Below, in pieces: positions 38,331 through 47,814 of a DNA stretch of 64,000 bases. The number at the start of each line of letters is the position of its first letter. Position 1 is the stretch's first letter. Source of the stretch: Candidatus Micrarchaeota archaeon (GTDB taxonomy: Archaea; Micrarchaeota; Micrarchaeia; Micrarchaeales; CABMGC01). The notes below the pieces were generated by a model that saw only the letters and a list, made by a program, of their open reading frames with translations, ran no database searches and had not been told where the DNA came from. The position numbers were made by a program, and so were the translations under genes. The DNA lies in the NCBI GenBank assembly GCA_021852055.1, contig JAJZOD010000009.1, positions 35,438 through 99,437 of the forward strand, written 5' to 3'.

Positions 38331-39629
38331 CTATTTTCTTATCTCAGTTTTTCCCATATACGGCACAAGAACATCCGGCACTGCCACAGTGCCTTTGTCT
38401 GTGACATAATTCTCCACTATGCACGCAATGGTCCTCTGTACGCTTATGCCTGTGCTGTTCAGAGTGTATACATATCTGCGCTCCCCTTTTTCGTCGTATT
38501 TTATATCAAGGCGCACGCTCTGCCATTCCCTTGCAGTTGAGCAGGATCCAAGTTCGCGGTAATCTCCTTGCCCAGGAAAATATGCTTCCCAGTCAACTGT
38601 CTTACTCATCTGGTGGCCAGTGTCTCCGCTGCTAAGCAGTACGAGCCTGTACGGTATATTGAGCTCCTGCATGAACTCCTCCGAGTTTGCAAGAATTTCG
38701 TCGAAATATTTCTGTTCATCCTCCCTTCTGCAATATACGAACTGCTCTATCTTGTTGAACTGATGCACGCGGAATATCCCTTTGGTGTCCTTGCCGTGTG
38801 AACCTGCTTCGCGCCTGAATGACGGGCTGAAGCCAACGTACTTCAAAGGGAGCTCGTTTCCTGAGAAGGTTTCTTCAGCATGCATTGCAGCAAGGCTATG
38901 CTCTGCTGTGCTTATCATAAACAGCTCCTCATCAACATGCTCAAAATTGTTCACGGCCTCGGCTTCGCGCGCCTCAGAAGTCCTGTAAAGTGCATCCTCG
39001 AATACGCCCAAAGGAGCCACCCCTTTGTAATATTTCTTCTTCAGCATATATGGCGGAGAGATGAGCGTATACCCCTTCTTGCACATCTTGTCAATTGCAT
39101 AGCGGATGACTGCCTGCTCCAGCAGTGCAAGGTCGCCGCGCAGGTAGAAAAATCTTGCACCTGCTGTTTTTGCTGCACGCTCTTCATCGAGCAGCCCCAG
39201 CTTTGTAAGTACATCCGCGTGGTTAGGTCCGTTTTTCTTTTTCACAGTGCCCCATGTCTTAATTACTTTGTTTGCTTCCGGAGGCATGCCTATTGGAACT
39301 GAACTGTCAAGCACGTTAGGCACATTCCATACCATTCCGTCTATTTTTGTTTCGTACGCTGTTATTTCTGCCTGCATGCCGTCTAGTTTCTTCTTAAGCT
39401 CTCCGAGCGCGGCTATCCTGCTCTTTACATCTAAGCCCTTTTTCTTGGCCTCGGATATTTCAATGCTTGACTTATTTCGCTGCGCCTGCAGTTCCTGAAT
39501 TTCTGTGCGCATAACGCGCCATTTTTCATCAAGCGATAAGAGCTCATCTATCGGAAAGTTGCTGTTCCTGTTTTTAAGCGTCTGGCGTATCTCGTCTATG
39601 TGGTCTCTTACATATTTAGTTGTAATCAT
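38331..39629 (-). CDS. serS: seryl-tRNA synthetase
   Basis: N-terminal coiled-coil arm plus class II motifs (FRREAGSHGKDTKGIFRVHQF, GSCSTAREWQ). First ATG at 39629; a TTG alternative lies at 39641. Confidence 0.9.
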   Translation of the reverse strand: MITTKYVRDHIDEIRQTLKNRNSNFPIDELLSLDEKWRVMRTEIQELQAQRNKSSIEISEAKKKGLDVKSRIAALGELKKKLDGMQAEITAYETKIDGMVWNVPNVLDSSVPIGMPPEANKVIKTWGTVKKKNGPNHADVLTKLGLLDEERAAKTAGARFFYLRGDLALLEQAVIRYAIDKMCKKGYTLISPPYMLKKKYYKGVAPLGVFEDALYRTSEAREAEAVNNFEHVDEELFMISTAEHSLAAMHAEETFSGNELPLKYVGFSPSFRREAGSHGKDTKGIFRVHQFNKIEQFVYCRREDEQKYFDEILANSEEFMQELNIPYRLVLLSSGDTGHQMSKTVDWEAYFPGQGDYRELGSCSTAREWQSVRLDIKYDEKGERRYVYTLNSTGISVQRTIACIVENYVTDKGTVAVPDVLVPYMGKTEIRK

Positions 39630-39693
39630 ATAAACCAACAATAATTATAGATGACATACGATTATAATACTTTACGACAAAGTTTAAAGTTAT

Positions 39694-39782
39694 GCAGGGG
39701 TGGCAGAGCTTGGCCAAATGCGACGGGCTTAGGACCCGTTCCCTTAGCGGGTGCGAGAGTTCAAATCTCTCCCCCTGCACCA
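39694..39782 (+). tRNA. tRNA-Leu (anticodon TAG), CCA encoded
   Basis: Acceptor GCAGGGG/CCCCTGC, anticodon arm ACGGG-CTTAGGA-CCCGT, long variable arm, T arm GAGAG-TTCAAAT-CTCTC, discriminator A and CCA. Its last 34 nt (39749-39782) are the repeat unit found three more times downstream. Confidence 0.9.
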
Positions 39783-39783
39783 T

Positions 39784-40560
39784 TTAGATTAATCCGGCAG
39801 CTCCAAAGCGCTCCATAAGATATCCTTTCACGTCCTTGTATCTGACAAATTCACTTTCTGGTAGCAGCCTCCCTAATTCCTTGTCCCATATAAGGCCCAA
39901 CTGTTTCATCCTGGCAAGCAATCTATCTTTTGTGAACGTATGGCCATATTCCTTCATCTTCTTGTCTATCATACTGACTTCAAAATCCACGCCGCTCTTT
40001 GCGAGAAAATAGATGTCATACAAATCTCTCGCCTTAACATTATGCCTGAAAAGCAGTGCAACAATTTTCTCGGATAGTATCTCCTCCCTGTTCATGACTA
40101 CCGCGACATACGGTTTTAAGTCCGGGTATGCAGGGTTTCTCCTAAATACCTCGGTTTTCTCAACGACAGAAGCCTTCTTGTCCACCTCTATCTTTAGGTG
40201 CTGGTATTTGTTCAGCATCTCAAATAATGGCCCTCTCACACTAAGCTCGTACACAAGCATATCGGCATTATTTTTCTTCCTCATAATCTTCAGCGGATAT
40301 TCCTTAGAAATCTTGTCTACGACATTGTCAAGCAATACGAGCAGCCTATTTCCGCCATCATCATGCACCAACGAGAAGTCGAGATCGTCGGAAAACCTTA
40401 TAGAGTTATAGAATTTTGAGAGTGCTGTCCCGCCCTTAAACACCAACTCTCCAGTTACAGCATATATCTCATCAAGAAATAGTTCTTCCACGTAGTCCTT
40501 CTCCTTCTGATACGGTTGCTCGTAAATGCCCATTTTCAGAAGTTCATCCTTTTCAATCAT
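39784..40560 (-). CDS. abiEii: AbiEii-type nucleotidyltransferase toxin (type IV TA / abortive infection)
   Basis: LVFKGGTALSKFYNSIRFSDDLDFS is the hallmark NTase motif of the AbiEii (DUF1814) family. It lies downstream of an AbiEi-like gene with a 4-nt gap. Confidence 0.75.
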   Translation of the reverse strand: MIEKDELLKMGIYEQPYQKEKDYVEELFLDEIYAVTGELVFKGGTALSKFYNSIRFSDDLDFSLVHDDGGNRLLVLLDNVVDKISKEYPLKIMRKKNNADMLVYELSVRGPLFEMLNKYQHLKIEVDKKASVVEKTEVFRRNPAYPDLKPYVAVVMNREEILSEKIVALLFRHNVKARDLYDIYFLAKSGVDFEVSMIDKKMKEYGHTFTKDRLLARMKQLGLIWDKELGRLLPESEFVRYKDVKGYLMERFGAAGLI

Positions 40561-40564
40561 ATAT

Positions 40565-41203
40565 TCACCTATCCCTTTGTGCTAAAGCGGACAGGCTTTT
40601 GGCCTGCGTTGCATATCCATATTCTCTCAGCAGCGCCGTGATTCCAACAAGCACCGATCTTTTCTTACTTTTCACTGCATAAGACACAAGTTTGTTTACG
40701 TCTATCCTGGCTGGCCTTTCGAGTGCCGCAGGGTCTAAGTCATTTACATCATCAAAATAATATATGTCTATCAGTGCCTTCTCCGGTTCTGCGATGAATA
40801 TGTTACCATCTGCTTCCTTTTTGTATCCGAACATCATGTCCTTTTTTATTTTTTTGAAAACAATGTCAAAACCCGCAACACCTTTAAGCCTATTGTGCCT
40901 TTTCGTGGAGACTACGTAGACGACTCTCGGTATCTGCGTAGTCAAGCCGTAATAGGCAAGTGCAGATACCATGCTAACATACGAAGGGCTCATCACATGC
41001 GACGCTATCTCATATTCGTTGTACCTCTCCTTTACATAGTATAAGCCCCTTTCAACCCTGCCGATGTACCCTTTCTTCACGCCTCTGTGAAGGAAAAGTA
41101 TAGAGTAAGTTCTGTTCTTGTGCAGTATCTTTATCGTGTCGTTTAAGGTAAATACAGGCATGTGCCTTTCAATCAGGAATCTTACAAAGTCCCTTGTTTG
41201 CAT
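40565..41203 (-). CDS. abiEi: AbiEi-type antitoxin/transcriptional regulator
   Basis: N-terminal wHTH-like region (VFTLNDTIKIL...GYIGRVERGLYYV), then PSYVSMVSALAYYGLTTQ, typical of AbiEi. Start refined to the ATG at 41203. Confidence 0.65.
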   Translation of the reverse strand: MQTRDFVRFLIERHMPVFTLNDTIKILHKNRTYSILFLHRGVKKGYIGRVERGLYYVKERYNEYEIASHVMSPSYVSMVSALAYYGLTTQIPRVVYVVSTKRHNRLKGVAGFDIVFKKIKKDMMFGYKKEADGNIFIAEPEKALIDIYYFDDVNDLDPAALERPARIDVNKLVSYAVKSKKRSVLVGITALLREYGYATQAKSLSALAQRDR

Positions 41204-41363
41204 GTTAGTAATTTGCACAAGAGGATATTTAAATATATGTGTTAAGTTAATTATCAAATGATAATCAATAGCACATTAATTAACAAGGGCTTCTCAGCTA
41301 GCTCAGAGCTCGTTGGAGTGTCCGGAAGCCCTCCGGAAGGAGAAGGGCCTGCTGCCTTAAGTC

Positions 41364-41391
41364 TGCGAGAGTTCAAATCTCTCCCCCTGCA
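41364..41391 (+). repeat. att-like copy 2: 28-nt core identical to tRNA-Leu 39752-39779
   Basis: TGCGAGAGTTCAAATCTCTCCCCCTGCA. Weaker similarity (CCTTA) extends to about 41355. Confidence 0.85.
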
Positions 41392-41584
41392 TATTCAATT
41401 TACGGCGACAAAGCAGGGTTCGAAAATCCGAAACGGAAATCTTCAAGAAGGGAAGATTTCAATAAGTCTTCCGATAACTTCTACATTACTATGCGGAAAG
41501 AGGAGCTATACAAAGAGACAGATAACGCCTTTAGCCTAGAGCAAGCTATAGACCTGAAAAGAACGTTAAGTCATTGAACACAAT

Positions 41585-41814
41585 CTAGTCTAGAAGCCGC
41601 TCAAATTCTTCGACTGTTAAGCCGACCTCCATTATTATTGCACGCAATGTGCCTCTTGGCACCTCTTTTCTATTCGGCACTACGGCTCTTCGGTGTGGAG
41701 GCTGCGTATTTCTGAGTATTATGTGGCTTCCCATTTGATGGTCGTATCTATATCCAATCTTGGATAGTGCCTTGACTACCTCTGCCGCTGATACTATATA
41801 AGAATCTTAGGCAT
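41585..41814 (-). pseudogene. hicA: hicA mRNA-interferase toxin gene disrupted by a 2-nt frameshift in a TATATA run
   Basis: The ATG at 41814 gives MPKILI then TAG (41796-41794). The next frame continues VSAAEVVKALSKIGYRYDHQMGSHIILRNTQPPHRRAVVPNRKEVPRGTLRAIIMEVGLTVEEFERLLD, a full HicA core with no start codon of its own. Confidence 0.65.
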
Positions 41815-41824
41815 TCACATTCAC

Positions 41825-42031
41825 CTATACGACTTCCTCTTTTATAGAAGGGGGTATCGGCTCGTTGTGCTTCTTGAGACTAGCCAGATAACCGGCTATA
41901 GCATCCTTGACGTTCTCTATAGCCTCTTTTCTAGTCTTGCCATCAGAAACGCATCTGGGCAACTGAGGTACGGTAGCTACAAATACGCCGTCTTCGTCCT
42001 GCTCTATTTCAACCCTGAAATATCTTCTCAT
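41825..42031 (-). CDS. hicB: HicB-like antitoxin (UPF0150-type, short form)
   Basis: FRVEIEQDEDGVFVATVPQLPRCVSDGKTRKEAIENVKDAIAGYL is the typical HicB N-domain pattern. It lies 10 nt upstream of the hicA ATG. Confidence 0.75.
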   Translation of the reverse strand: MRRYFRVEIEQDEDGVFVATVPQLPRCVSDGKTRKEAIENVKDAIAGYLASLKKHNEPIPPSIKEEVV

Positions 42032-42202
42032 GTCCGTTCATTGTATATTATACAACCCAAGCTATTTAAATTTAGGAAGTGTCCTGGCCCTAACTAAAGA
42101 CCTCCGGGCGACTAGAGACCCTATATCCCAAAAGGTCTTTAAGTAGCTCTGGGCAGGAAGCCCTAAGCCTGAAAGCAAGTTGACTAGAAATATCTAAGGC
42201 AC

Positions 42203-42715
42203 TTATTGCAGTTCATCGATATACCCCTCAAGTGTGTCTTTGTGCCCCCATCCCTCAGCTGCATGTTCTACAATCCAATTCAGCCGAGGCTCAAACTGTC
42301 CTTTTAACGAAGTATTACTTGGCTCATTGAGTAATCCTATAATCTCGTAAAACATATTTTCCATGCTTGTGTAAAATGCTTCATACAGGTCGCCGTACTT
42401 TTCGCCTAACCTAGTTCCTGTTTCAACGTAAAAAATCATTAGTTCTATGATATGCTTCTCATCTTTAGATATTTTTTTGAAGTTAGAGATAAGTTTTCTT
42501 GCTTCCTTCAAGTTTGGTCTTGCATCATTGAAAATACATGTCCTTATTTTCCCTTTGAAATATATCATTGCTTCTCCCTCTCCGTTTTCGCCTTCAAGCT
42601 TTAATAAGAGCCATTCAAGATTTTCCTTTCTTAAATCTGCAACATCAAGTAGGAGAGAAACCAATTTATCTTTCTCTAGACTTTTTAACTTTCTCCTAAG
42701 ATCCTCACCTTTCAT
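42203..42715 (-). CDS. all-helical 170-aa protein of unknown function (third gene of the operon)
   Basis: It resembles, from memory only, widespread uncharacterised DUF-type proteins (LKEARKLISNFKK...ELMIFYVETG...GDLYEAFYTSMENMF...GWGHKD). 11 nt downstream of the RelE-like gene. Confidence 0.45.
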   Translation of the reverse strand: MKGEDLRRKLKSLEKDKLVSLLLDVADLRKENLEWLLLKLEGENGEGEAMIYFKGKIRTCIFNDARPNLKEARKLISNFKKISKDEKHIIELMIFYVETGTRLGEKYGDLYEAFYTSMENMFYEIIGLLNEPSNTSLKGQFEPRLNWIVEHAAEGWGHKDTLEGYIDELQ

Positions 42716-42726
42716 CTTTTGAGCAC

Positions 42727-43125
42727 CTACCTTTTCTTGTAGCCGAATATTTTGTTGTATTCTTCATGGTCTATTATATCCAGCACGTCTAACCAAATTG
42801 AGAGTATCTCAACTTCTGTGTCCTCCCTCTGAGGCTGCTTTATTGTGTATATCATTCTCCAAGCACCAGAGAGGTTCACTTTCCAAAGGTTCGTAACATC
42901 ATATAGCGAGATGTATTTTTGAGCTACATTCTTCTTTGGTATGTGAATTCCGTAGTCATAATCCACTTTCAATATGGCTATCTTGTTATCTATTGATTTA
43001 AGGAGCGTCTCGTGGAACGAGTCAGTTATACTTTTTGATATATCCTCAGCAACTTTCTTTTTTAGGGCTAGGTAGGCGTCTTTTGCATCCCCTAAAAGCT
43101 TTACCGAAACGCGTTTCTCTACCAA
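42727..43125 (-). CDS. RelE/ParE-superfamily-like toxin with an N-terminal extension (tentative)
   Basis: The C-terminal pattern LWKVNLSGAWRMIYTIK...VEILSIWLDVLDIIDHEEYNKIFGY parallels the L.G..R.IY.I....V.I..I..H..Y core of RelE/ParE toxins. Confidence 0.45.
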   Translation of the reverse strand: MVEKRVSVKLLGDAKDAYLALKKKVAEDISKSITDSFHETLLKSIDNKIAILKVDYDYGIHIPKKNVAQKYISLYDVTNLWKVNLSGAWRMIYTIKQPQREDTEVEILSIWLDVLDIIDHEEYNKIFGYKKR

Positions 43126-43129
43126 AACA

Positions 43130-43396
43130 TCACACCGGTAAGCCTTCCTGCTCGGCCTTCTCTAGTTTCTTGCTGGGATTGAATGTCCAGATAAAGCCTT
43201 TCTTGGTTTCAAGAACCATGCCTCGCTTCTCCATGTAGTCAAGCGCAAGGTTCAAGGTAGAACGCATTACACCAGTCTGCAATCTAGCCAATATCTGGTT
43301 CCTGCTAACTGGGTTATTAGCCTTCTTGACTACTTCCTCTATTGCCAATATGGTCTTAAGCGTAGGATAGTGGACGATCTCTTTCTGTAGTTGCAT
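43130..43396 (-). CDS. small winged-helix DNA-binding protein (putative antitoxin/regulator)
   Basis: Start refined to the ATG at 43396 (MQLQKEIVHYPTLKTILAIEEVVKKANNPVSRNQILARLQTGVMRSTLNLALDYMEKRGMVLETKKG). 4 nt upstream of the RelE-like gene. Confidence 0.5.
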   Translation of the reverse strand: MQLQKEIVHYPTLKTILAIEEVVKKANNPVSRNQILARLQTGVMRSTLNLALDYMEKRGMVLETKKGFIWTFNPSKKLEKAEQEGLPV

Positions 43397-43564
43397 AATA
43401 TAACACCTAATAAGTATATACCCTAATAGATATATAAGTCTTTCTACACATTTAGAGGCTTCTCTACATGAACTTGGCAATCCATGTAGAGAAAAGTCCA
43501 AATAGAAATCCTCAAAATAGCTTTTCACTAGTGACTAATGCACATCAAGCTTGGGCTTAGAATC

Positions 43565-43674
43565 TTATGTTGTTTTTGGTGTGAAATATGGCTAGGAATA
43601 TAGGCGTGAAACAGCTAGGAAACGCTCTCAAACCCCTATCGGGTGCGAGAGTTCAAATCTCTCCCCCTGCACCA
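43565..43674 (+). repeat. 110-nt direct repeat (76-nt non-tRNA arm plus 34-nt att-like copy 3 at 43641-43674)
   Basis: 107/110 identical to 47598-47707. The last 34 nt are identical to tRNA-Leu 39749-39782. Confidence 0.9.
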
Positions 43675-43730
43675 ACTCAAAAGGTTCTTTTTGCAAAAGT
43701 ATTTATATATTAACATTTAGTTAATATATT

Positions 43731-44447
43731 ATGAAATTGACAACAAGGATAAAGGGATATATCGATTCAGCAAAGCTAACCTACTTCCCCCTCCTGGCTA
43801 GCCTTTCGTTAACTTCTGAGAACTCATTGCGGGTCACGCTTAACAGACTGGTCAAAGCCGGCGAAATATACAACCCGATTAAAGGCGCATATGTTTCAAA
43901 AAATGCAGATATGTTCTGGGTAGCATGCCAACTGCACGTAGGCTATATATCTCTCTCTACAGCTTTCTATCTCCACCACCTGATTGAAGAATTTCCGTTT
44001 ACGGTTTTTGTTGCGTCTAACGTTAGGAAATCCGTGCAGATGGGGAACCTCGAATTCATTTACTTCAAGGCACGTAATTATGCCGGTATCGAGAAAGGCG
44101 ATTACCCACTTGCTTCGGTTGAGAAAGCAATCAGCGATTCCTTAATGCACTTATCCTTAACGAATTTTACAATGCTTGCAAAGGTACTGTACTACGCAGA
44201 CATAGATTCTGGCAAGCTGATTCGGTTATGCGACGCAGAAAACTCCGCATCCTTTCAAAGGCTTGGATATCTGCTGTCCCTTCTTCCAAAACTTGATAAG
44301 GAAAAGTCAAAAATGCTCACATTCTGCAGGAAAAAGATAAAAGCAAACGCATATCTTAGCGGGAAACGCAGTGGCACATATATACCAGAATGGAAAATTA
44401 TAGATAACATAGGCAAAGAGGCGATTCTGTCATGGTGGCAACAATAG
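43731..44447 (+). CDS. abiEi: AbiEi-type antitoxin/regulator (second, divergent copy)
   Basis: SLRVTLNRLVKAGEIYNPIKGAYV wHTH-like region, then GYISLSTAFYLHHLIEE. Overlaps the downstream AbiEii gene by 16 nt. Confidence 0.6.
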   Translation: MKLTTRIKGYIDSAKLTYFPLLASLSLTSENSLRVTLNRLVKAGEIYNPIKGAYVSKNADMFWVACQLHVGYISLSTAFYLHHLIEEFPFTVFVASNVRKSVQMGNLEFIYFKARNYAGIEKGDYPLASVEKAISDSLMHLSLTNFTMLAKVLYYADIDSGKLIRLCDAENSASFQRLGYLLSLLPKLDKEKSKMLTFCRKKIKANAYLSGKRSGTYIPEWKIIDNIGKEAILSWWQQ

Positions 44448-45112
44448 CTTTTAAACTCGACGAGTTGCAGGATTACGCAGCAAGAGATGGACTAAGCTTG
44501 AATTTCGTGGTCAAGGAGGCCTTCCTTTTTGAGCTCATGGAATCCATGGGGACGGAAAAGTTCGTGCTGAAGGGCGGTACAGCCATAAATAAAGGCTATT
44601 TGGGTAGTCACCAGCGGTTTTCTGAGGATTTAGATTATGACACTGATCTAGATGAAGGCGATGCCAAAAAATATATCAAACAGATTGGATGGGAAATCAA
44701 GAAGGAATTTTTCACAAAACATTCGATTGGCTTCTCGATGGCGTATAAGTTTGACAGCATCAGAGACGTAGTCAGACTTGACATCTCATTTGGTATAAAA
44801 AACAAAATAGAAAAGAGGCGAGCAGCATCTGATTTTATACCAGTATCAAAAATAGCGCCAATGTACGGTTTCAGTGAACTCAACCACCAGAAGGAATCTG
44901 CATTTGAAGAAAGAAGGGAGTGGAAAGATATCTACGATTTATACTGGATGCATGAGTTGTATCCACATGAATTCAGGATAAAATATAAGACAAAGTTCGC
45001 GGAGGCGCTTTCAACTACAAACGTTCCGAAGATTGCAAATGCATACATACCTGCACAAAAAAGACCCAACTGGGACGAAGTTATCGAGAAGTTGAAGCAA
45101 GCGATCAAATAG
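44432..45112 (+). CDS. abiEii: AbiEii-type nucleotidyltransferase toxin (second, divergent copy)
   Basis: FVLKGGTAINKGYLGSHQRFSEDLDYD NTase motif. Confidence 0.75.
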   Translation: MVATIAFKLDELQDYAARDGLSLNFVVKEAFLFELMESMGTEKFVLKGGTAINKGYLGSHQRFSEDLDYDTDLDEGDAKKYIKQIGWEIKKEFFTKHSIGFSMAYKFDSIRDVVRLDISFGIKNKIEKRRAASDFIPVSKIAPMYGFSELNHQKESAFEERREWKDIYDLYWMHELYPHEFRIKYKTKFAEALSTTNVPKIANAYIPAQKRPNWDEVIEKLKQAIK

Positions 45113-45374
45113 CGCCAGAGCGAGAAAGAACAGATTCTTTCCTGTCGGATTCACTTATGGCATAACTTAGTCAAATGCGCAAGGTTTAAGACATTGAATC
45201 TTTGGCAGAGGAAGCCTAATCGCTATCCACGCAAAATCAGCCGCTGCTATGTTGCTAGCTTACAGCTCATTGGAGCGACCCATCTAAAGGTGATTTGCGT
45301 AGACTTTAGGTTCCGGGCAAAAAAAAACAAATATAAACTTTTGTATTGTATATAAACCTGATTCTTGTGGTGTC

Positions 45375-46598
45375 ATGGCAACTTCTAAGTCTATAGGTTG
45401 GATAATAGGAATTATAATAGTGGTGCTTGTAATTGCTGTTGCAATCAGCTCTCTGAGCAAGCCTAGCACTGCGCCAAGCACAAGCATAGCACAATCTCAA
45501 AACAGTACCACTACCATACGCGCATCACAGGTGCCATCACAGTTGTATGTCAGCACAGCAGGATCTGACTCAGCAAACGGCACACTCTCTGCCCCGCTTA
45601 AGACAATAAACCGGGCAATAGCGCTAGCTAGGCCAGGTCAGGTCATAATAGTGGCCCCCGGAACTTACAATGAGCAGATAAACATAACCTCCAGAGCTAT
45701 CATCGAAGGTGAAAATGCCAATACGACAATAATAAACGCCTCAGGTCAGATGAATGGCATAAACATTATCGGCCCTGGGGCTAATGGCACAGTGCTAAGT
45801 AATCTCACTGTAGAAAATGCGGATAACCACGGAATATACGCTCAGGATGTAGGCAACGTAAAGATCATAGATAACATAGTAAAGCACAATGGTGTCAATG
45901 CTACAGTATGTCCTCAGCCGCCGGCAAAGCCTGCAGGCCCGTGCATAATTGAGGACAAGCCAATAGAACTGATAGGAACAAACAATGTTACAGTTGAAAA
46001 TAATGTAGTCACAAACAACCTCGCCGATGGGGGTATAGGCATATCAGATCTCGGTACTATAAATCCTGGAAGTTTAGCGCAAACGCACATTTTTGCTAGT
46101 TCTAGAGGCAACAAGATAATAGGAAACAAGGTTATATACAACAAAGGTGGTTGCGGCATCGTAATTGCATCATATAACAAAGATGGTGTAATAAACAATT
46201 TGGTGGAGAACAATACTGTCGGTTTCAGTGTCGCTGGAATAGTAATAGGCGCCGGGGCACCAAACTCAACTGCTATGAACAATCTAGTTGTAAACAACAC
46301 GGCATTTAACAATTTCCTCCCAGGCATAATAGTGCATGCTACAACACCCGGCGACGTCCTATCTAATACTACTGTAGAATTCAACAGGGTTAGCGGCAAC
46401 GGCGCAGACGCAGAAGTAGGGGCGATGAATAAGACAGGGATAGTTGTTTCAGGAGATGTGATGCCGGTACTGAACGCCACAATAAAGGGCAACAACGTAA
46501 GCAACGAGTATTACGGGATATGGCTGAGGAATGCTCCAGGTGCAGCTATGCAGAACAATACCTTTGCGAATGTTACTGTAGAAAATTATACAAAGTGA
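45375..46598 (+). CDS. N-terminally anchored, secreted right-handed parallel beta-helix repeat protein
   Basis: TM/signal anchor SIGWIIGIIIVVLVIAVAI, Ser/Thr linker, then repeated (I/V)xNNx(I/V)xxN(x)GI beta-helix rungs (ENADNHGIYA, IIDNIVKHNG, VENNVVTNNLADGGIGI, IIGNKVIYNKGGCGIVI). Confidence 0.7.
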   Translation: MATSKSIGWIIGIIIVVLVIAVAISSLSKPSTAPSTSIAQSQNSTTTIRASQVPSQLYVSTAGSDSANGTLSAPLKTINRAIALARPGQVIIVAPGTYNEQINITSRAIIEGENANTTIINASGQMNGINIIGPGANGTVLSNLTVENADNHGIYAQDVGNVKIIDNIVKHNGVNATVCPQPPAKPAGPCIIEDKPIELIGTNNVTVENNVVTNNLADGGIGISDLGTINPGSLAQTHIFASSRGNKIIGNKVIYNKGGCGIVIASYNKDGVINNLVENNTVGFSVAGIVIGAGAPNSTAMNNLVVNNTAFNNFLPGIIVHATTPGDVLSNTTVEFNRVSGNGADAEVGAMNKTGIVVSGDVMPVLNATIKGNNVSNEYYGIWLRNAPGAAMQNNTFANVTVENYTK

Positions 46599-46622
46599 TT
46601 GTTGCCGCACACAGTGGCTTTC

Positions 46623-47486
46623 ATGTCCAAAGAGCGAGGTTTTCCAAAACATCCCGGTAGCTCTCTGTCGAGCGTAGCCAAAATAGAATCCCCTCAACAT
46701 ATAGGAGCAGAACAGGGCAGTTTCCCTGCTTATACGCACCGCCTCTTATTACAGAGCTTCCTGCTTGGGCTTGTACCTCCTATTGTTCTGTTAGCTGCAA
46801 TCATCCTAAAAAGCCTAACTCTACTGACCTACACGCATGTCATGTCGGCAGTGATGTGGACTGGTTTTGACCTCTTCATGGCCCTAATACTCGGGCGGGT
46901 GCTCAGGTCGCTTGACATAGCGGGCAGGGTAGAAGTGGCCAAAAGGCTCACTCCATCTACCTTCTTCATATTGCCTTCCCTTGCCGCAACTACCATAACT
47001 GCGGGCATATATCTCGCAATGTCACTTGGAGTTTTTAATCTTTCGTACCTCTGGATAGTGGCTGCATTGTTAATAGTCACCATATTGACTGTCCAGGGCT
47101 TCGTCATTCTCATGCCGAACAGTATGAGAATCTTCATAGAGCTAGCTAAGCCGGATCCTAGCAAAGAGAGGATAGCGAAGCTCAACGGCATAAACATAAG
47201 GCTTGCTGGTGTCCAGGGGGTATTCCAGATTGTGATAATCTTCATAATGGTGAACATCTCCAATCTTCCTGGCGCCGCAGCGCAACTGAACCTTCCAATG
47301 ATCTTCTACTCTCTCATCGCTTTCGCTGCGCTGTTCTTGGGCGTGTACTTATTCATATATCGCGGCGCGCTGGCGGACTATAAGCGGGGTGAGCTGAACG
47401 AAAAGGCAATCAGCACGCTCAGGTTTGGATTATACGGCCATATAATCATATTTCTTATATTGGGGCTTACATTACTGTTCGCATAA
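46623..47486 (+). CDS. polytopic membrane protein, function unknown
   Basis: About 7 hydrophobic helices. Start uncertain (TTG at 46599 directly after the upstream stop, first ATG at 46623). Confidence 0.4.
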   Translation: MSKERGFPKHPGSSLSSVAKIESPQHIGAEQGSFPAYTHRLLLQSFLLGLVPPIVLLAAIILKSLTLLTYTHVMSAVMWTGFDLFMALILGRVLRSLDIAGRVEVAKRLTPSTFFILPSLAATTITAGIYLAMSLGVFNLSYLWIVAALLIVTILTVQGFVILMPNSMRIFIELAKPDPSKERIAKLNGINIRLAGVQGVFQIVIIFIMVNISNLPGAAAQLNLPMIFYSLIAFAALFLGVYLFIYRGALADYKRGELNEKAISTLRFGLYGHIIIFLILGLTLLFA

Positions 47487-47597
47487 CCTTATGCGAGGTT
47501 CAAGGTTCAGATCTGCCTGAAATCTGAACGCTAGCTGCTTATATACCCTGCTCGGCCATTGTTCATGGTTCAGATGAACCTGCTTTGGTTTAAGATT

Positions 47598-47707
47598 TTA
47601 TGTTGTTTTTGGTGTGAAATATGGCTAGGAATATCGGCGTGATACAGCTAGGAAACACTCTCAAACCCCTATCGGGTGCGAGAGTTCAAATCTCTCCCCC
47701 TGCACCA
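47598..47707 (+). repeat. 110-nt direct repeat (arm plus att-like copy 4 at 47674-47707)
   Basis: See 43565-43674. It is followed by TTTA, as is the tRNA-proximal copy. Confidence 0.9.
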
Positions 47708-47814
47708 TTTAAACTCTCTCCGTGCTCTAATAAGCAAAAGCTTTAAAGCTGTCATTGAATTATTGAATGAAAGGACTGTGGCAAGTCTCGTATCCGCTTT
47801 ATGCAATAATGCAG

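Follow-up and report, generated by a model that had tools for sequence, protein, structure and literature searches.

Three small genes packed one behind the other on a Micrarchaeota contig raise the question of whether they form a toxin-antitoxin (TA) or defence system of a new, three-part kind, or a two-gene module followed by a gene that does not belong to it. The genes, designated g1, g2 and g3, lie in a stretch of 64,000 nucleotides of contig JAJZOD010000009.1 (assembly GCA_021852055.1, Candidatus Micrarchaeota archaeon), which is referred to below as the window; coordinates are those of the window unless a relative's locus (L number) is named. A previous reading of the letters alone, called here the sequence-only reading, had described three minus-strand genes with gaps of 4 and 11 nt and had taken them for a candidate tripartite TA or defence module. 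The open reading frame (ORF) coordinates confirm that arrangement, with gaps of 4 nt between g1 and g2 (43126-43129) and of 11 nt between g2 and g3 (42716-42726):

43130-43396, minus strand: g1, 88 amino acids, ATG start; winged-helix protein in the antitoxin/regulator position
42727-43125, minus strand: g2, 132 amino acids, TTG start; RelE/ParE/YoeB-superfamily protein, putative toxin
42203-42715, minus strand: g3, 170 amino acids, ATG start; all-helical DUF6155 protein, lineage-restricted third cistron

The locus is best read as an uncharacterised variant of a two-gene TA-like module and not as a new three-part system: g1 and g2 constitute an uncharacterised family distributed across DPANN archaea, and g3 is probably not part of that module, being an add-on in one narrow lineage. 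All three are real genes, because their homologues are conserved and because, in comparisons with relatives, codon positions 1 and 2 change far less than position 3; the ratio of differences at positions 1 and 2 to those at position 3 is about 0.47 for g3 versus 0.08 for g1, indicating weaker constraint on g3. A 132-amino-acid reading of g1 from a GTG start at 43528 was discarded as spurious, as the relatives are all 86-95 amino acids long and the promoter block abuts the ATG at 43396. The closest relatives of both g1 and g2 are found in Micrarchaeota metagenome-assembled genomes (MAGs), and the window therefore comes from a DPANN archaeon.

The evidence that separates the pair from the third gene is synteny read from both sides, in a census of pattern-matched loci, at most 80. 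On the g2 side, where one genome per species was retained (79 loci), a g1 homologue stands immediately upstream of g2 in 75 of the 79 DPANN genome loci, the two being adjacent, co-oriented small genes with a gap that is nearly always between -11 and +9 nt, and in the other four a contig end truncates the locus or g2 is present only as a fragment. The pair was observed in Micrarchaeota, Iainarchaeum, Woesearchaeota, Nanoarchaeota, Altiarchaeales and other lineages, with g2 identity to the window falling from 93% to 32% and roughly tracking taxonomy. The third gene accompanies g2 in a single one of these loci (L019) and is absent from 78 of the 79, while from the other side 77 of 80 DUF6155-relative loci are without g1 or g2 and three, all metagenome loci, have the pair; the conserved tripartite system that had been proposed is not borne out by these counts. 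The sequence-only reading had staked its idea on the three genes co-occurring elsewhere, and the triad does recur, only within a narrow Micrarchaeota clade; in the synteny comparison it had called for, the g1-g2 pair came out as conserved and g3 as lineage-restricted. The alternative label of a defence module found no match either, as no defence family of PADLOC-DB 2.0 was hit by any of the three proteins at E values up to 1, and PHROGs searches with the same proteins returned nothing useful. In the literature searched, no paper describing the g1-g2 pair and no mention of DUF6155 were found.

The g2 family is compact: 299 homologues were collected, nearly all of 132 amino acids, and the family has 569 representatives at 50% identity among 1.84 billion. 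When full-length relatives of 29-48% identity from Woesearchaeota, Nanoarchaeota and other lineages were compared with Pfam, 12 of 33 and 17 of 45 matched PF05016 ParE_toxin (best E 3.3e-8), and some also matched PF24732 ParE_like and PF06769 YoeB_toxin. The profile of the broad family reaches the S. aureus YoeB structures 7bwf_A and 6l8e_E with E values of 1.6e-4 to 1.8e-4, YoeB being the only protein of solved structure within its reach, and an hhalign comparison with E. coli YoeB gave an E value of 3.2e-5 at a probability of 73% and placed R90 of g2 on the catalytic R65 of YoeB. Residues G59, R90, H120 and Y123 are invariant in the 45-member broad alignment. The AlphaFold2 (AF2) model of g2, built from 40 homologues (predicted local distance difference test score, pLDDT, 76.6; predicted template modelling score, pTM, 0.72), comprises strand 5-8, helices 13-30 and 37-54, strands 60-62, 80-84, 89-93, 109-112 and 116-119, and helix 120-127, which is the superfamily fold of an N-terminal strand, a two-helix hairpin and an antiparallel sheet, with an 8-residue insertion in the sheet of the Micrarchaeota members. 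The first five Foldseek ranks in the PDB are ParE 5ceg_B (probability 0.98), HigB2 twice, HigB and the RelE-like Cami1. As judged from the relatives' PF05016 matches, the YoeB profile match and the predicted fold, g2 belongs to the RelE/ParE/YoeB superfamily, just as had been suspected from the sequence, and its closest solved relative by sequence profile is YoeB. The helical N-terminal extension of about 60 amino acids that had been described along with it dissolved on comparison: since the YoeB profile alignments begin at YoeB residue 3, this part is the normal strand and two-helix hairpin of the fold, with longer helices. By analogy with YoeB, g2 would be a ribosome-dependent mRNA endonuclease, for which toxicity and RNase activity are predicted.

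The winged-helix nature of g1, also proposed earlier, agrees with profile matches that are all weak, including TBPIP (E 1e-3), SelB-wing_2, Penicillinase_R and RPA32 wH, none of which reaches its curated cutoff. Invariant residues of g1 are H9, P11, L13, T15, E20, T47, L48, Y54, G59 and W70, and its C-terminal tail, NPSKKLEKAEQEGLPV, is conserved. From its position and fold g1 would be expected to bind DNA and to neutralise g2, and the region upstream of it contains elements that could serve such a regulator:

43397-43443, minus strand: nearly invariant 47-nt promoter block, AAAGACTTATATATCTATTAGGGTATATACTTATTAGGTGTTATATT, which holds a TATA-like box and GGTG
43406-43434, minus strand: two direct 13-nt repeats, TATATCTATTAGG (43422-43434) and TATACTTATTAGG (43406-43418), candidate g1 operator
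43461-43492, no strand given: perfect 10-nt inverted repeat upstream of the promoter, TCTCTACATG-N12-CATGTAGAGA

The promoter block retains 41 invariant columns across 12 Micrarchaeaceae sequences, in which the same genome pairs use different codons at 27-55% of the conserved amino-acid positions of g1 and g2, and its motif is recognisable in Iainarchaeum and in other lineages and phyla. The 13-nt repeats start 16 nt apart, overlap the TATA-like box and are conserved in relatives, and the pattern TATAYYTATTAGG has only these two matches in the 64-kb window. Such promoter repeats fit the pattern expected of predicted operators for cognate repressors. The inverted repeat is unique in the window (0 expected in shuffles), is conserved, is duplicated in some relatives (L013, L014, L027, L031 and partly L023), and is a candidate for a second binding site or an insulator.

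The third gene exhibits a different pattern. It matches PF19652 DUF6155 over its full length (residues 3-167 on profile positions 3-167 of 170) with 27.9 bits, just above the gathering cutoff of 27, and has no other Pfam match; most of its 32 close homologues carry DUF6155 as a precomputed annotation. Its AF2 model (pLDDT 88.8) has nine helices and no strand, so that the all-helical, DUF-type protein anticipated by the sequence-only reading was recovered; the model gave no significant fold match in the PDB or BFVD, and single-sequence searches of g3 against PDB sequences and NCBIfam returned nothing useful. Elsewhere the neighbours of DUF6155 genes are heterogeneous, such as a PIF1/WYL helicase, Bro-N, YhcG_C with HEPN and PIN, or none. 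A recurrent partner was sought by clustering the flanking ORFs of the 80 loci, which yielded tiny clusters only and no common neighbour.

Beside the pair, g3 was found in five lineages, which involve two paralogous pair types. The window carries type A; type B pairs (L059 3401-4035; L098 585-1234; L096 12-661; L008 3340-3989) encode a g1' of 95 amino acids and a g2' of 116-121 amino acids that is about 44% identical to the g2 of the window, and have different, palindromic repeats at the same place in the promoter, AGATATAT-TT-ATATATCT. The type B pair of L059 has a VapBC-like pair and a truncated g2 of type A as neighbours. The five lineages are:

Window: pair type A; all three genes intact
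L019/L010/L011: pair type A; g2 without a start codon and with S36F and G59E; g3 with a stop at codon 157
L008/9: pair type B; g2' with an in-frame stop; g3 intact
L096: pair type B; intact
L097/98: pair type B; intact

Of the five lineages of this narrow Micrarchaeota clade, two thus have a broken g2 and one a broken g3, and the two substitutions in L019 remove two invariant residues. The closest type A relatives, L013-L016, have a g2 90-93% identical to that of the window and no g3, and homology of the window to the closest g3-less relatives ends exactly at the g2 stop codon. The g1 of the window is one residue apart (99% identical) from the g1 of L013, a locus without g3, and g1 has 88 amino acids with or without g3, giving no sign, such as an extension, of an antitoxin adapted to a third component. 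At the nucleotide level the window is homologous to L008 across g3 and no more than the final 57 nt of g2, which suggests that g3 may move by recombination through the conserved 3' end of g2.

The surroundings of the pair in the window were those of a transfer RNA (tRNA) gene used repeatedly for integration, with attachment (att) cores, an integrase remnant and further TA genes:

39694-39782, plus strand: tRNA-Leu(TAG), called by ARAGORN and Rfam; attachment site of the island array
39753-39779, plus strand: att-core copy 1, inside tRNA-Leu; 27-nt 3' core
39784-40560, minus strand: AbiEii, Pfam AbiEii E 2.6e-26
40565-41257, minus strand: AbiEi, AbiEi_4 E 5.8e-7
41335-41571, plus strand: tyrosine integrase remnant, found by tblastn with the L014 integrase; keeps residues 11-59 and 281-315 of 318 amino acids
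41365-41391, plus strand: att-core copy 2, exact 27-nt repeat of the tRNA-Leu 3' end
41585-41734, minus strand: hicA, 49-amino-acid ORF, HicA_toxin E 1.2e-7 over profile positions 20-58 of 58; appears N-terminally truncated
41825-42031, minus strand: hicB, Pfam HicB_lk_antitox E 1.7e-9; looks complete
43645-43671, plus strand: att-core copy 3, upstream of g1, inside a 110-nt element (43568-43674)
47678-47704, plus strand: att-core copy 4, from the exact 27-nt core search

The four exact same-strand cores bound three tandem islands (39694-47709), two of which carry an AbiEi/AbiEii pair: the first island is taken up by the type IV TA pair AbiEii and AbiEi, and another AbiE pair is located past att copy 3. 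The region is a tRNA-Leu integration hotspot that gathers TA cargo (AbiE, HicAB), with DUF6155 also as cargo: hicB, the truncated hicA and g3 sit between the integrase remnant and g2, with hicB and hicA directly downstream of g3. The earlier description of a mobile island next to hicBA is well matched by the att cores, the integrase remnant and the HicB and HicA Pfam matches. In relatives the order is seryl-tRNA synthetase (SerRS), tRNA-Leu, tyrosine integrase, then convergent g2 and g1 (L014, L031, L026), with an intact integrase between tRNA-Leu and g2 in L014 (5403-6359, 318 amino acids) and L031 (5381-6331, 316 amino acids) and a 260-amino-acid integrase ORF in L026 (5381-6163), the reading frame starting within the tRNA-Leu 3' end. 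In L023 and L030 a distance of 60-170 nt separates the tRNA from the g2 stop, and in several lineages a tRNA 3' end (Leu, Gly or Ser) is found just past the g2 stop. L015 is without the AbiE pair, and its tRNA 3' end runs directly into sequence homologous to window 41364-41481.

The element of about 110 nt consists of the last 42 nt of tRNA-Leu and a preceding 65-nt extension that includes CTCAAAC, and copies were observed in the window (43568-43674 and 47597-47709), in L027 (2421-2543) and in L008 (5461-5564). It was considered as a split or intron-containing tRNA-Leu(CAA) and rejected, as ARAGORN and Rfam made no call and its fold was no more stable than those of shuffled sequences (z = -0.59); a 5' half with a GCAGGGG acceptor is found nowhere else in the window. 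The element is treated here as an att-type repeat whose flank is conserved, although it could also be a tRNA in decay. The third island also contains a 407-amino-acid protein (45375-46598) in which right-handed beta-helix domains (Beta_helix, DUF1565, NosD) accompany a hydrophobic N-terminal segment.

Differential divergence was observed for the pair and for the SerRS gene near it (38331-39641). Between the window and L014, g2 displays 93% amino-acid identity and 72% identical codons at conserved residues, SerRS 54% and 40%, respectively; compared with five relatives, SerRS is 50-58% identical, g1 83-95% and g2 70-93%. In L023 (4732-5399) the pair is a mosaic, with a group-A g1 that shares 91-93% identity with the window group and a group-B g2 that shares 88-90% with L030 and L031, in a comparison with the window, L014, L015, L030 and L031 where groups A and B are sequence groups within type A and not the type A and type B paralogues; this implies a probable recombination between g1 and g2. 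The lower divergence of the pair relative to SerRS and the mosaic point to horizontal exchange within the family, and both argue against a strictly vertical inheritance of g1-g2 in Micrarchaeaceae, which was considered and set aside.

The reading that accommodates these observations best, and that is held here with slightly better than even confidence, is an autoregulated two-gene TA-like operon of a winged helix-turn-helix protein and a YoeB/RelE-like toxin, which travels with a tRNA-Leu element in Micrarchaeaceae and has g3 as a passenger. In such an operon g1 would repress transcription from its own promoter by binding the two direct 13-nt repeats with which that promoter overlaps, and its conserved C-terminal tail would keep g2 inactive; free g2 would cut mRNA on the ribosome by means of the invariant R90, H120 and Y123, the proposed counterparts of YoeB R65, H83 and Y84. 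In Micrarchaeaceae the pair, placed beside a tyrosine integrase at the tRNA-Leu 3' end, would stabilise a small integrative element as a module that is itself exchanged horizontally. The third gene, together with hicAB, would be cargo that entered the variable segment separating g2 from the integrase; g3 lies 11 nt past the g2 stop and is predicted to be co-transcribed with the pair, most likely being expressed by read-through from the g1 promoter.

Several observations weigh against this reading, some concerning the identity of the proteins and others the roles of the pair and of g3. As to identity, the assignment of g1 to any one winged-helix family is weak, and the g2 of the window by itself matches no Pfam model above threshold (its best toxin-family match, PF24732 ParE_like, has E 0.11 and 13 bits versus a cutoff of 24.4 and covers the last 12 residues only), no NCBIfam model and, in a single-sequence phmmer search, no PDB sequence. 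The Foldseek E values of the g2 model are weak (0.026 to 0.9), residues 100-111 of the model form a low-confidence loop, and the equivalence of H120 and Y123 with YoeB H83 and Y84 is a guess, both residues lying outside the region covered by the YoeB alignments. It is also conceivable, if improbable, that g2 is a ParE-type gyrase poison and not a RelE/YoeB-type mRNA endonuclease, an option that concerns the activity of g2 alone and is compatible with every other reading: the best Foldseek match is a ParE, ParE_toxin and ParE_like are the commonest Pfam matches, and the long N-terminal helical hairpin is ParE-like. However, PF05016 takes in both RelE and ParE proteins, the sequence profile reaches only YoeB among solved structures, and an arginine aligned to YoeB R65 together with invariant C-terminal histidine and tyrosine is the pattern of the RNase members. 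As to g3, its link to the pair is not random: wherever flanks are readable in the clade of at least 63% identity, which is to say in five of five lineages, g3 follows a g2-type gene by 11-13 nt on the same strand, this holds for both paralogous pair types, three of the five triads are fully intact, and there is no terminator-like gap before g3, the start of which is preceded by a Shine-Dalgarno-like GGTG. In its Micrarchaeota sub-clade g3 might then be a true third component, acting for instance as an additional neutraliser, as a chaperone-like protein that stabilises g1, as a sensor, or as a second effector under the control of the pair. This is regarded as doubtful, and the probability assigned to it is small, since 74 of the 79 pairs, including the closest relatives, do without g3, g1 and g2 keep the same length and nearly the same sequence in either case with no extension of the chaperone-addiction type, g2 is disrupted both in L008, where g3 is intact, and in L019, where g3 stops prematurely, the homology shared with L008 fits transfer by recombination, and DUF6155 proteins further removed stand alone among unrelated genes.

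The remaining points against a mobile TA-like operon concern the conservation of the pair. It is spread over several DPANN phyla at roughly one locus in each genome, the complete genome L030 among them, and often sits among housekeeping genes with no integrase in view; outside Micrarchaeaceae these contexts include RNase HII and CTP synthase, tRNA-intron endonuclease and an aminoacyl-tRNA synthetase, and HD proteins. Moreover, g1 and g2 are more conserved than SerRS, and relatives of g2 (like those of g3) are absent from the 2.9 million viral contigs of IMG/VR. These features, along with identities that roughly track taxonomy and a promoter conserved across phyla, would suit a regulator that DPANN archaea have domesticated for a quasi-housekeeping role, such as a ribosome-associated factor of the RelE/YoeB type with a winged-helix repressor dedicated to it, and to which g3 is irrelevant. 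There is a precedent for it in the MNT-HEPN fusion conserved in DPANN (cls.004259, NEQ050), a TA-type gene that is unusually conserved and occurs in housekeeping contexts (Makarova, Wolf and Koonin 2019, PMC6393860). Domestication is possible but on the unlikely side, as the att-core repeats with the integrase, the lower synonymous divergence than SerRS and the g1/g2 mosaic indicate horizontal exchange, and disrupted copies (L008, L019, L059, with truncated ORFs in L016, L055 and L061) suggest dispensability, although MAG assembly errors may account for some of them. A combination of the two ideas, in which the winged-helix and YoeB/RelE-like pair is kept across DPANN for a cellular role such as tuning of translation or dormancy and DUF6155 has been recruited as a third partner in one clade, is given little credence. 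The two-gene TA-like operon with g3 as passenger is accordingly retained as the preferred reading.

Compared with YefM-YoeB and RelBE (PF05016, PF06769), the g1-g2 pair shares two small co-oriented genes a few nucleotides apart with the toxin second, a RelE/ParE fold and YoeB profile homology of g2, repeats overlapping the promoter, and a location in an integrative island. Unlike them, its partner g1 is a winged-helix protein and not of the YefM/Phd or RelB fold; its g2 is longer (132 amino acids), has extended helices and the 8-residue sheet insertion, and lies below all Pfam thresholds; and its conservation is unusually high, DPANN-wide and at about one copy per genome. Tripartite systems of the RelE/ParE type include TAC (HigB-HigA-SecB-like chaperone), PaaR2-PaaA2-ParE2 and PasABC. 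The locus resembles these in being a single operon of three small genes, one of which encodes a RelE/ParE-fold toxin, and differs from them in that g3, all-helical and of the DUF6155 family, matches neither a SecB-like nor a regulator fold, in that the third gene is missing from nearly all relatives, and in that g1 has no extra segment in loci that bear g3. Like the MNT-HEPN fusion, g1-g2 is a TA-type module unusually conserved across DPANN and often in housekeeping contexts; unlike it, g1-g2 consists of two separate genes, RelE/YoeB-like and winged-helix, with mobility evidence in one family. Among DUF6155 proteins (PF19652), g3 is a full-length member just above the gathering score that is distinguished from the others by its g1-g2 neighbours.

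A tidy three-gene operon can therefore be a conserved pair plus a recent insertion, and two-sided synteny settles the question quickly. The locus documents a Micrarchaeaceae tRNA-Leu hotspot in which a small integrase element accumulates AbiE, HicAB and DUF6155 cargo. The pair, annotated merely as hypothetical protein and in the window missed by Pfam, defines an uncharacterised RelE/YoeB-like subfamily with a winged-helix partner, a promoter and predicted operator recognisable across phyla, and strong conservation in DPANN. DPANN archaea may have kept TA-like genes for cellular functions, of which this pair is a concrete case; if true, a cellular role in archaea that depend on hosts and have reduced genomes would account for the stronger conservation of the pair relative to a tRNA synthetase.

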